Below are positions 21,457 through 23,642 of a stretch of 64,000 bases of DNA, piece after piece. The notes beneath the pieces are model-generated. The model worked only from the letters and a program-made list of their open reading frames with translations. It had not been told where the DNA came from and searched no databases. A program made the position numbers and the translations under genes. Source of the DNA: a virus (Duplodnaviria; Heunggongvirae; Uroviricota; Caudoviricetes); the IMG/VR virus record IMGVR_UViG_3300020048_000019, positions 1 to 64,000 of that record; one strand, 5' to 3'. The first letter of the stretch is position 1. Each line of letters begins with the position of its first letter.

Positions 21457-22618
21457 CCAAGTTATCAAGGGTCGCATATATCCTGCCCTAGCACGGCATT
21501 CCGCAAGGCCTTATACACAGGCATGGCGCGAGTTCGGGCTACATTTTCCTTACACTGTACCTTTAAGATTGCAAGAGTACTGCAACCACCACAATGTAAA
21601 AATTAATATTCATCACATGCACAGTGCTTTGCCCAAAAACACTTATTATCCTGTAGGTCTTGGATTTTTTAATTTTGGGATTGACTATTTCACATTGTTA
21701 CCTGCTGAAGTGTTTTATGCTGTGTTAAAGGGCAAAATTCGTGTGTTATTTTACTATCACGAAGGTGACAATCCATTTAGTATCAAGCAGCGTCTGGACA
21801 CTCTTGCAGCACAGTTAAGGCTTCCGCAAGATTGCTATGTGTTTGTCAGCGCCAATTCTGCTGCCAGCAGTATTCCCGGCTTTGTGCATTTTAACGATTT
21901 TGAATTATGGTACTGGCAACGCAATGAGGCTGTACAGCCTTGCAACATACATGATCAGCTACGCGAGCGTGAGTTCACTGTGTTGAATAGACTGCACAAA
22001 TCATGGCGTGCTACTGCAATGGCAGATCTGCATCGTCAAGGCATCTTGAACAACAGTTACTGGAGTTATTGCGAATCTGGAGACTTAGTAGATGCTGAGA
22101 ATCCCATAGAAATAGACAGTATTGATACTCTACGAACCTCCACTACAGATTTTCTAGCACAGGCTCCTTACATAAGTGACAAGCTGAGTCAGGATGAACG
22201 CAACAATCATAGTATTCAAGAATCCAAATATTATGTAAATGCCTACTGCAATATTGTAATGGAAACACATTTTGATGCTGACGGGTGTGATGGAACTTTT
22301 CTTACGGAAAAAACATTCAAACCTATCAAGCATGGACAATTGTTTTTTATTGCAGGGCCAGCTGGTAGTTTGCAGCAACTGCGTGATCTAGGTTATAGAA
22401 CATTTGATTCAGTCCTGGACAACACTTATGATCGCATTGCAGACAACACCCAACGATGGCTCAGACTGCGTGACGCTATTCAACAAGCACAACATAGATT
22501 AGCAGACAGATTTGAGGCAGCTAGATCAGATATCGAGCACAATCAGCAGTTATTTGTGGCTCCCAAGACCCAACGTTTAAATACTCTTGTTAGGAAAATA
22601 AATGAGCAATATTGTTAA
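21434..22618 (+). CDS. fucosyltransferase-like (GT10-like) glycosyltransferase, paralog 3 of 5
   Basis: C-terminal METHFDADGCDGTFLTEKTFKPIKHGQLFFIAGPAGSLQQLRDLGYRTFDSVLDNTYD. Confidence 0.5.
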   Translation: MELNLIADQVIKGRIYPALARHSARPYTQAWREFGLHFPYTVPLRLQEYCNHHNVKINIHHMHSALPKNTYYPVGLGFFNFGIDYFTLLPAEVFYAVLKGKIRVLFYYHEGDNPFSIKQRLDTLAAQLRLPQDCYVFVSANSAASSIPGFVHFNDFELWYWQRNEAVQPCNIHDQLREREFTVLNRLHKSWRATAMADLHRQGILNNSYWSYCESGDLVDAENPIEIDSIDTLRTSTTDFLAQAPYISDKLSQDERNNHSIQESKYYVNAYCNIVMETHFDADGCDGTFLTEKTFKPIKHGQLFFIAGPAGSLQQLRDLGYRTFDSVLDNTYDRIADNTQRWLRLRDAIQQAQHRLADRFEAARSDIEHNQQLFVAPKTQRLNTLVRKINEQYC

Positions 22619-23642
22619 TTCGTACACTAGTTGGCAACCACTAGAAGAAGTTATTGTGGGCAGAGCCTACAGTCCAGACTATTTTGATTTTATCGACAAC
22701 CCGCAGGTGCGCAATCAGCTACAACAAATCCTGTCCGAGACTGAGGAAGATCTAGACCAATTGAGCCGCACAATTGAAAAGTACGGTGCCACTGTACGTA
22801 GACCAAACTTGCCCGACAAAGAAGGTTTTCTTTGGCTCCACGGTAAAGATAAAAAAAGAAAAAAAGAAGCACCGTTGCCTCCCTTGACGCCACGCGACTG
22901 GCAAATTACACTGGGTGACAAATTGTTGCGTGTACTGAACATGGAAGGGCTGGACGAAATCTGTGCCAGCTATGGGGATCAAGTTATCAATCCACATTAC
23001 GGGCGTTGGGATCCTAAGTGTGTTCTAAACGGTGCGTCAGCTAGTTGTATTGTGCGGGTAGGGCGCGATGTATTCTTCGACAATAGCGATTTCCTCAAAC
23101 CTGAGCAAACACGCTGGATTGTGGACAATGTACTAGGTCCCGAATATCGCATTCATGAAGCCATTACAGACGGGCACGGCGACGCTGTATTTGCTATTCT
23201 CAAGCCAGGTGTTATTTTAAGCAGTAAGCATGACGTAAACTTGGACCTGGCCAAAGACTTTCCTGGATGGGATGTTTGCAAGATCTGGGACAGCAGCATC
23301 TGGGCAGCAATGGAAGTGGGCAAGTTCAAGTATGAGCAAAGTCCGGGGGCATGGTATGTGCAAGGTCAAACACCCACCCCTGAGTTTGCACAGTTTGTGG
23401 ACACCTACCTAAACAAGTGGACTGGCTTTGTGGCAGAAACTGTGTTTGACGTCAACTGTCTTGTGCTGGACGAAGAGAACGTCATCTTTAGTGCATACAA
23501 CAAGCAGGTGTTTGACTACTGCCACAAGCATCGTATCAATCCTATTATTAGTGAACTGCGACATAGCTACTTTTGGGACGGTGGTATCAGTTGCTGTACA
23601 CAGGATATTCGTCGTCGTGGTGGCATGGAGACTTACCTGTGA
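22602..23642 (+). CDS. amidinotransferase (AGAT/StrB1/CyrA/SxtG-like, guanidino-group-modifying enzyme superfamily)
   Basis: C-terminus WDGGISCCTQDIRRRGGMETYL parallels the AGAT catalytic-Cys tail [15 protein letters not shown]..YL. Internal GHGDAVFAILKPGVIL block. Confidence 0.55.
   Translation: MSNIVNSYTSWQPLEEVIVGRAYSPDYFDFIDNPQVRNQLQQILSETEEDLDQLSRTIEKYGATVRRPNLPDKEGFLWLHGKDKKRKKEAPLPPLTPRDWQITLGDKLLRVLNMEGLDEICASYGDQVINPHYGRWDPKCVLNGASASCIVRVGRDVFFDNSDFLKPEQTRWIVDNVLGPEYRIHEAITDGHGDAVFAILKPGVILSSKHDVNLDLAKDFPGWDVCKIWDSSIWAAMEVGKFKYEQSPGAWYVQGQTPTPEFAQFVDTYLNKWTGFVAETVFDVNCLVLDEENVIFSAYNKQVFDYCHKHRINPIISELRHSYFWDGGISCCTQDIRRRGGMETYL

Follow-up and report, generated by a model that had tools for sequence, protein, structure and literature searches.

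The closest characterised relatives of the protein studied here are amidinotransferases of cellular genomes. StrB1 of S. griseus (PDB 1bwd) belongs to the streptomycin pathway, which also works with a DegT/StrS-type aminotransferase and an aminated, carbohydrate-like acceptor, and in the saxitoxin cluster, too, an amidinotransferase occurs together with a NodU-type carbamoyltransferase. SxtG, CyrA and HsvA are cellular genes of polyketide-type or virulence contexts with a full Asp-His-Cys triad (shown for CyrA/AoaA), and human arginine:glycine amidinotransferase (AGAT/GATM, PDB 1jdw) completes the set used for comparison. Here we analyse a gene at positions 22602-23642 (+ strand) of a 64,000-nucleotide stretch of a Caudoviricetes record (IMG/VR IMGVR_UViG_3300020048_000019, positions 1 to 64,000; the whole stretch is called the window below), which an earlier note, made from the sequence alone, had described as a phage-encoded, AGAT-like amidinotransferase lying among sugar-tailoring genes.

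Phage "amidinotransferases" have been annotated since 2010, and the presence of such a gene in a phage is therefore already known in kind. Campylobacter phages CP220 and CPt10 carry an "interchangeable module" of five radical S-adenosylmethionine (radical-SAM) genes and a putative glycine amidinotransferase (Timms et al. 2010, PMC2853527), and a 2025 paper assigned no function to modules of this type. The CP220 locus comprises a baseplate lysozyme, PAAR, four radical-SAM genes, a hypothetical gene, the amidinotransferase, a further radical-SAM gene, two GT-A nucleotide-diphospho-sugar transferases and a PAP2 phosphatase, and that of CPt10 is analogous. CP220 gp086 matches the hidden Markov model of the family of our protein at E 8.7e-35, and the CP220 radical-SAM genes match, at 1e-37, a radical-SAM family found alongside the gene in environmental phages. 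As in the window, the Campylobacter modules lie beside the baseplate genes and combine several radical-SAM genes with one amidinotransferase-like gene, to which they add glycosyltransferases. Unlike in the window, their radical-SAM genes are shorter and the modules lack dehydratase, DegT and carbamoyltransferase genes; their amidinotransferases, at 22–24% identity to ours, keep the triad Asp and a GGG(I/V)HC motif.

The closest cultured-phage homologue is ORF266 ("glycine amidinotransferase") of S-SCSM2R, with 30–32% identity and a WDGG motif shared with our protein; unlike the phage of the window, S-SCSM2R is a T4-like cyanomyovirus, with a 244-kb genome. ORF266 is flanked by KdsA/KdsB and by 2-oxoglutarate (2OG) oxygenases, and its product was detected in purified virions (PMC12801897). 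The region ORF302-310 of the same phage contains four glycosyltransferases (including a GT2), a DegT-like AHBA synthase, a radical-SAM enzyme, a 2OG oxygenase and a second amidinotransferase, ORF309 ("inosamine amidinotransferase"), which differs from our protein in being of the canonical type, with 33–38% identity to AGAT/StrB1 and the Asp kept. The earlier note had proposed a search of cyanophages for homologues; the cyanophage S-SCSM2R has two. Twelve radical-SAM genes have also been noted in a marine genome of T4-like type.

Compared with these systems, the protein of the window belongs to the AGAT/StrB1/SxtG-type amidinotransferase lineage by descent and predicted fold. What is new is its membership in a very large viral subfamily with a signature of its own (WDGG motif, 50-residue insertion, short lid), the position of the gene within an unusually large conserved block of dehydratase, DegT, carbamoyltransferase, radical-SAM and unnamed "family X" genes, and a jumbo-phage clade that, as judged from alignments, does without the triad Asp. 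Conservation and structural modelling suggest that the protein is very probably a functional enzyme of its lineage. The complete chain of claims, that it is active and transfers an amidino group to a sugar or glycan acceptor, is our preferred reading and a tentative one, possible rather than probable.

Descent, predicted fold and conserved residues

We recovered the open reading frame (ORF) with exactly the coordinates and strand of the earlier note. At its 5' end it overlaps the preceding gene (21434-22618) by 17 nt, and its stop shares GTGA (23639-23642) with the GTG start of a downstream DUF6071 gene; gene calls on two other assemblies that encode an identical protein (loci L183 and L184) were made independently and agree with these overlaps. 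Residues were compared in an L-INS-i alignment of AGAT, HsvA and StrB1 with 51 family members, using an AGAT sequence identical to PDB 1jdw across 423 residues, and were counted in 117 representatives of 50%-identity clusters and in 81 members of the clade of the window. The features of the gene are:

22602-23642, + strand: amidinotransferase-like coding sequence, 346 aa, ATG start, predicted pentein fold (ORF, homology and model)
22839-22871, + strand: lineage-specific Lys/Arg-rich surface loop HGKDKKRKKEA, encoded with two A7 runs (sequence and clade comparison)
22896-22898, + strand: codon of Asp99, equivalent to AGAT Asp170 (guanidinium binding), in a PRD motif; Asp in 112/117 representatives and 81/81 clade members
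23037-23039, + strand: codon of Ser146, aligned by L-INS-i with the triad Asp (AGAT D254, StrB1 D179); Ser in 81/81 clade members
23172-23183, + strand: GHGD block with His192 (115/117 representatives) and Asp194 (117/117), both in 81/81 clade members
23577-23642, + strand: C-terminal tail DGGISCCTQDIRRRGGMETYL with the predicted nucleophile Cys331 (23592-23594); Cys in 116/117 representatives and 81/81 clade members

Searches with phmmer against all PDB chains matched amidinotransferases only (AGAT 2jdx, E 6.2e-15; StrB1 1bwd, 1.7e-14; SxtG, 7.4e-10; HsvA, 3.6e-8), and a profile of the phage clade strengthened the best PDB match to E 1.9e-19. With 51 diverse homologues as input, AlphaFold2 gave a confident model (predicted local distance difference test, pLDDT, 89.4; predicted template modelling score, pTM, 0.90), whose first seven Foldseek matches in the PDB were StrB1, HsvA, AGAT and SxtG, with E 5.7e-22 to 1.7e-19 and a template modelling score (TM) of about 0.65, and the pentein hydrolases (arginine deiminase, DDAH, agmatine deiminase) ranked later, at 1e-9 or weaker. 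Sequence (AGAT, StrB1, SxtG, HsvA) and predicted fold therefore agree on the AGAT-like identity proposed earlier, and the best PDB matches are all amidinotransferases rather than members of an unrelated family. PADLOC returned no match for the protein, and its sole library match was PHROG 25854, of "unknown function", at 8e-12.

StrB1 was the best Foldseek match (E 5.7e-22, TM 0.67) and aligns with our protein nearly end to end; both have the same Cys, His and two Asp residues, as well as the N-terminal WxPLEEVIVG and C-terminal GGxxCxTxDxRRxGxxETY signatures, at about 20–27% identity. Human AGAT (E 6e-15) likewise conserves the tail and the four active-site residues, with D170, H303, D305 and C407 corresponding to D99, H192, D194 and C331, and SxtG, CyrA and HsvA share the fold and the motifs. 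The two motifs singled out in the earlier note stand up: HMMER places the tail WDGGISCCTQDIRRRGGMETYL on the AGAT tail, with Cys331 on Cys407, and the GHGD block (residues 191-194) aligns with AGAT M-H303-I-D305.

The phage family also departs from the characterised enzymes in ways of its own. Relative to AGAT, the lid is shortened and an insertion of ca. 50 residues occupies positions 229-281; compared with StrB1, the lid is much shorter, and the phage family is set apart by this insertion and by the WDGG motif. Residues E279, N285, R320, H321, W325, D326 and R338 are near-invariant and particular to the phage family, and position 283 is Asp or Glu in 106/117 representatives. Conserved acids (D99, D194, E279, D283 and D326) crowd the predicted active site, which would fit cationic substrates.

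The gene is intact and full-length in 80/80 close IMG/VR loci, and the median ratio of nonsynonymous to synonymous substitution rates (dN/dS) is about 0.06 over the 22 comparisons unsaturated at synonymous sites, most of the others being saturated; together, these observations make a dead gene very unlikely. The Lys/Arg-rich insert and its A-tract are present as the earlier note had described them (HGKDKKRKKEA, two A7 runs at about 22851-22865). Among the 81 clade members this loop occurs only in the window, and also in the 92%-identical protein P0001, the other members having a QTEGGG-like segment that is 4 aa shorter; it is hypervariable and the least confident part of the model (pLDDT 65–74). 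We rejected the suggestion that the A-tract might be prone to slippage, since no relative has a frameshift there (80/80 loci intact) and the loop is merely hypervariable. A scan for promoters and terminators gave counts near those of shuffled controls and was uninformative; a minus-strand, terminator-like hairpin with a T-run at 22862-22885 is the complement of the A-tract and probably meaningless.

The gene block in the window and its clade

The gene belongs to a module of roughly 25 kb that adjoins tail and baseplate genes of jumbo-phage type. The neighbouring features in the window are:

15732-16706, + strand: nucleoside-diphosphate-hexose 4,6-dehydratase/epimerase (library matches; synteny in L002 and L003)
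16661-17773, + strand: DegT/PseC-like sugar aminotransferase (library matches; synteny in L002 and L003)
17742-20330, - strand: large gene of 862 aa between DegT and family X, for which no family annotation was found
20329-21456 and 21434-22618, + strand: two tandem family-X paralogues directly upstream of the amidinotransferase gene
23639-24307, + strand: DUF6071/SGNH-like gene with GTG start and the GDSL/SGNH-like N-terminus VKILINGDSNMAGEE (gene calls in L183 and L184)
24288-24500, + strand: decayed fragment of a second, diverged amidinotransferase, covering ca. residues 113-205, with an in-frame TGA and two internal deletions
24563-26050, - strand: NodU/CmcH-type carbamoyltransferase, convergent with the amidinotransferase gene (Pfam Carbam_trans_N and Carbam_trans_C)
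26353-38780, - strand: array of seven paralogous radical-SAM genes (SPASM-like domain at the N-terminus), among which lie two family-X genes and one unknown gene

In the clade, the order is 4,6-dehydratase, DegT, the large gene (-), two family-X genes, the amidinotransferase, a variable spacer, the carbamoyltransferase (-), an unknown gene and the radical-SAM/family-X array (-), and the same order is found in contigs of 295 and 350 kb (L002 and L003). Among 80 clade loci, the carbamoyltransferase is present in 78, radical-SAM genes and the large gene in 68 each, family-X parA in 65 and DegT in 46, this last count being limited by the 6-kb flank. The carbamoyltransferase matches NCBIfam NodU at 3e-41, under the cut-off of the model. 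The large gene reaches up to about 1200 aa in relatives, and its residues 625-799 resemble the N-terminus of the ORF at 40408-41370 (-) (blastp, 1.5e-10).

The radical-SAM paralogues (27389, 29680, 30891, 32285, 33528, 34915 and 37341) form part of one conserved block, 3.7–15 kb downstream of the amidinotransferase gene and on the opposite strand. Their domain order is unusual, with SPASM (Pfam, ca. residues 12-97) N-terminal to the radical-SAM core (130-330), and is also seen in the loci L010 and L017, which come from metagenome-assembled genomes (MAGs).

Family X has five paralogues in the window (2402-3568 (-), 20329-21456 (+), 21434-22618 (+), 28674-29726 (-) and 36245-37357 (-)), which share a C-terminal motif, E-T...LTEKTFKPI..G.PF...G..GSL..LR..GFRTF. 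The family has more than 4500 metagenomic homologues, and a large homologue search gave unnamed proteins only; searches of Pfam, NCBIfam, PHROG and PDB sequences produced no match.

The spacer downstream of the amidinotransferase gene is unusual in the window, where it contains the DUF6071/SGNH-like gene and then the amidinotransferase fragment, which looks like a recombination or insertion scar. The former is present in 2/80 clade loci and so looks like a recent insertion; an alternative TTG start at 23573 is probably wrong, external gene calls supporting the GTG at 23639. The fragment has 72% nucleotide identity across 168 nt to positions 23039-23206, and its translation, NMEELDENCILKGASCIVRVGCDVFFDNSDFLRSNQTRWIVDNVLGSDY*IRGAISDGHGDVVFE, keeps the GHGD block.

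At the far end of the window, an ORF of 5023 aa (47170-62241, -) lies directly upstream of the baseplate wedge gene, with FG-GAP repeat as its sole Pfam match; the product, possibly a giant fibre or an adhesin, is a candidate target of the neighbouring modification module. Upstream of the module, the window also encodes an RNA ligase (1335-2240), a MoxR-type AAA ATPase (3939-5021), a separate, B12-binding-type radical-SAM enzyme (5645-7144), a DUF2201 metallopeptidase/VWA protein (9184-10455), an SPFH/Band-7 protein (11227-12024) and ThyX (14431-15120).

Carrier phage, distribution and neighbours across the wider family

Megablast of positions 20000-27000 against 50,697 phage records (INPHARED) gave no match. 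The baseplate wedge protein (62241-63968) is similar to its counterparts in SCTP-2, Phosso, Atu_ph07, RsoM2USA and the Rak2 group, all of them jumbo phages, and close homologues of the amidinotransferase-like protein lie on contigs of 295–350 kb. On this evidence, the carrier is an uncultured, Rak2/Atu_ph07-like jumbo phage. A cyanophage carrier, as implied by the earlier note, is not a supported reading, because the window contains no photosynthesis, hli or other hallmark genes and its baseplate protein is Rak2/Atu_ph07/SCTP-2-like.

Matches to the protein were found in 4 of the 50,697 cultured-phage records, and AGAT itself matched 15 (12 Campylobacter phages, 2 Enterococcus phages and S-SCSM2R). 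Metagenomes contain 3371 homologous proteins at E <= 1e-3, in 686 clusters at 50% identity, and IMG/VR has at least 598 loci with homologues. The statement that amidinotransferases are rare in viruses is thus correct for cultured phages and does not extend to metagenomes. The 15 matches from a search for cellular relatives are all short contigs of metagenome-assembled genomes (MAGs) with phage-like neighbours, with zero isolate genomes among them, and so neither a cellular origin nor a host can be read from them. A UniProt/BFVD entry named [quoted passage not shown] has a TM of 0.87. In all, the subfamily is large, almost purely phage-borne and uncharacterised. Second amidinotransferase paralogues of about 29–36% identity occur elsewhere in jumbo-phage genomes of this group (L058 and L138, both from IMGVR_UViG_3300032268_000986 of 342,865 bp; L051; L083), and several diverse loci have 2–3 amidinotransferase copies within 16 kb.

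We examined the wider context in 80 diverse IMG/VR loci and in MAG contigs, the homologues on the latter being 27–31% identical to our protein. Of the 80 loci, 20 have the radical-SAM family, 11 have family X and 6 have the epimerase. The same radical-SAM family, with its N-terminal SPASM-like domain, forms arrays of 3–6 genes beside the homologue in four MAG loci (L009, L010, L011 and L017) and is a single neighbour in three others (L007, L016 and L018); in MAG locus L006, family X lies on both sides of the amidinotransferase homologue. This radical-SAM family occurs in 4 of the 50,697 cultured-phage records, one of them also with an amidinotransferase homologue; its near-absence from cultured phages indicates that the pairing with the amidinotransferase is not a chance effect, in a comparison that crosses databases.

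The commonest cassette among distant relatives, found in 23–29 of the 80 diverse loci, consists of a 177-aa unknown protein (f1_177), an ATE_C-like protein, DUF6614 and the amidinotransferase. The ATE_C-like protein has ca. 149 aa and resembles the C-terminal domain of Arg-tRNA-protein transferase (Pfam ATE_C, 1.6e-6). Loci with this cassette include L118, L120, L128-L137, L140, L141, L148, L163, L167, L171 and L173-L175, and radical-SAM arrays often adjoin it. In one other lineage, the homologue lies near a FolE/phosphoribosyltransferase/Fer4_12/RNase H backbone. Neither the ATE_C/DUF6614 cassette nor the FolE/Fer4_12 backbone is present among the proteins of the window.

Proposed function and competing explanations

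Under the preferred reading, the product would act in the cytoplasm as an enzyme of the amidinotransferase branch of the penteins, the superfamily that modifies guanidino groups. In a donor clamped by D99 and D194, most likely L-arginine, Cys331 would attack the guanidino carbon, as in AGAT and StrB1, to yield an S-amidino-cysteine (thiouronium) intermediate, with His192 as the general base, and an amine acceptor would then take the amidino group and become a guanidine. With the canonical Asp missing, the task of orienting His192 would have to fall to Ser146 or to a residue particular to the family, for which the near-invariant E279 and D326 are candidates. The likeliest acceptor in the clade would be the amino group put on a 6-deoxy-hexose by the neighbouring DegT enzyme, as a nucleotide sugar or within a glycan, and the same glycan could be further carbamoylated and then tailored by the radical-SAM enzymes. 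Its destination could be a virion fibre or giant protein, the host envelope or a free metabolite. That amidinotransferase, radical-SAM and glycosyltransferase genes recur together in three phage lineages unrelated to one another speaks for a glycan role.

Several findings weigh against this reading. Of the catalytic triad whose conservation the earlier note had made its check, Cys331 and His192 are kept and the Asp is not: Ser146 replaces it in all 81 clade members, an alternative HMMER alignment with a three-residue gap puts the also non-acidic Asn143 in its place, and residues 141-149 of the protein include no acidic residue at all. In the wider family, the residue aligned with the triad Asp is variable (N 22, S 18, D 16, other 61; n=117), and no pattern emerged when alignment columns were cross-tabulated in search of a compensating residue. 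The residue before the nucleophile is Ser330, in contrast to the His found in AGAT (FHC) and in 110/117 relatives, and with both the Asp and this His replaced the chemistry may be altered. The carboxylate-binding R322 and S355 of AGAT are replaced by D211 and D283, so that the site for the carboxylate of glycine or arginine is not preserved. Pfam returned nothing for the protein at E <= 1 except three chance matches, and NCBIfam had no match. The genomic context adds to these objections. The co-location with sugar-tailoring genes noted earlier holds within the clade, where dehydratase, DegT and carbamoyltransferase are kept, and is lost in the wider family, where DegT accompanies 1/80 and the carbamoyltransferase 0/80 of the diverse loci; the sugar link, and with it the case for guanidinylation of an amino sugar, is accordingly specific to the clade. 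Lastly, the AlphaFold model of family X is poor (pLDDT 55) and its Foldseek list non-significant, if mostly made up of GT-B glycosyltransferases, so that a glycosyltransferase role is a hint only.

The most elaborate version of the preferred reading joins the amidinotransferase, working on a Cys-His dyad, with the carbamoyltransferase, the dehydratase/DegT pair, the five family-X proteins and the seven N-terminal-SPASM radical-SAM enzymes in a pathway to a guanidinylated, carbamoylated glycan or an aminoglycoside-like pseudo-oligosaccharide. In this complete form we consider it improbable, and to our knowledge this class of products has no viral example. If true, the tailored product could coat the giant fibre protein of the virion or be a diffusible metabolite during infection.

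The absence of DegT from most family contexts and the frequent SPASM- and ATE-like partners keep a peptide or protein substrate as a rival, in which the enzyme and the SPASM-type radical-SAM array would together modify a virion protein or RiPP-like precursor (RiPP, ribosomally synthesised and post-translationally modified peptide), for example by amidination of Lys/Orn or by editing of the Arg guanidino group. Radical-SAM/SPASM enzymes, best known from peptide maturation, are the most conserved distant partner of the family (7 MAG loci, 20/80 viral loci), and the ATE_C-like gene and DUF6614 of the commonest cassette elsewhere, the presence of S-SCSM2R ORF266 in purified virions and the proximity of the module to tail/baseplate genes and to the 5023-aa ORF are also in keeping with this explanation. 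We nevertheless regard it as rather unlikely: no precursor peptide and no RiPP recognition element was found, the ATE_C/DUF6614 cassette is missing from the window, the characterised close relatives all act on small molecules, and in three phage lineages the module comes with sugar-nucleotide genes and glycosyltransferases.

The altered triad, including the replaced His beside the nucleophile, and the entrance to the active site, remodelled by the insertion (229-281) and the shortened lid, likewise keep hydrolysis as a rival. The pentein superfamily alternates transfer and hydrolysis on a single fold, and a deiminase- or amidinohydrolase-type enzyme could have diverged from an amidinotransferase, with water resolving the thiouronium. 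This is an unlikely course for a protein whose sequence and fold resemble the transferases (E 1e-20) far more than they do any hydrolase (E 1e-9) and that retains the N- and C-terminal signature motifs of AGAT/StrB1, in a module that encodes no obvious guanidino substrate for hydrolysis.

Alternatively, the gene could be a stand-alone auxiliary metabolic gene (AMG) that makes guanidinoacetate, homoarginine or an HsvA-like amidinated polyamine from host pools. Some family members bear automatic "glycine amidinotransferase" names, viral K00613 is listed in AMG catalogues and surveys assume such a role; besides, the closest structures include that of HsvA, which amidinates polyamines, and the acidic pocket would suit polyamines. 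We find this quite improbable, given that the residues that hold the amino-acid carboxylate in AGAT are not conserved, that the gene is fixed in a multi-enzyme module, with start and stop codons overlapping its neighbours, and that the window contains no GAMT-type partner.

The chances of a role in nucleotide or phage-DNA modification seem very low. One lineage of the family does have GTP cyclohydrolase I, a Fer4_12 radical-SAM gene and a phosphoribosyltransferase in its vicinity, and ThyX is 7.5 kb upstream in the window, but that synteny includes RNase H and looks like a single-lineage phage backbone, the window has no DpdA, QueC, QueD or base-modifying transferase, and the known archaeosine amidinotransferases seem to have unrelated folds. 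The 7-deazaguanine lead was rejected for the window, the "amidinotransferases" of that literature being unrelated ArcS/QueF-like enzymes and the FolE synteny resembling a lineage backbone. Finally, a catalytically dead pseudoenzyme or structural protein, in line with the loss of one triad residue and the homologue found in virions, is extremely unlikely, since Cys, His and both Asp are invariant in the 81 clade members and kept in about 115/117 distant relatives, with dN/dS about 0.06.

We return, then, to an enzyme that may guanidinylate a glycan, and to what its relatives are currently called. In annotation pipelines, members of this family go under the names "glycine amidinotransferase" or "inosamine amidinotransferase"; in surveys, they are counted among the AMGs of creatine/arginine metabolism. 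Such labels are unsafe, because the amino-acid-binding residues are lost, a triad residue is replaced throughout the clade, as far as the alignments indicate, and the genes keep radical-SAM/glycan company in at least three unrelated lineages. Together, our results point to a recurrent phage pathway that possibly makes guanidino-modified glycans, for which the conserved version in jumbo phages is a possible test case.

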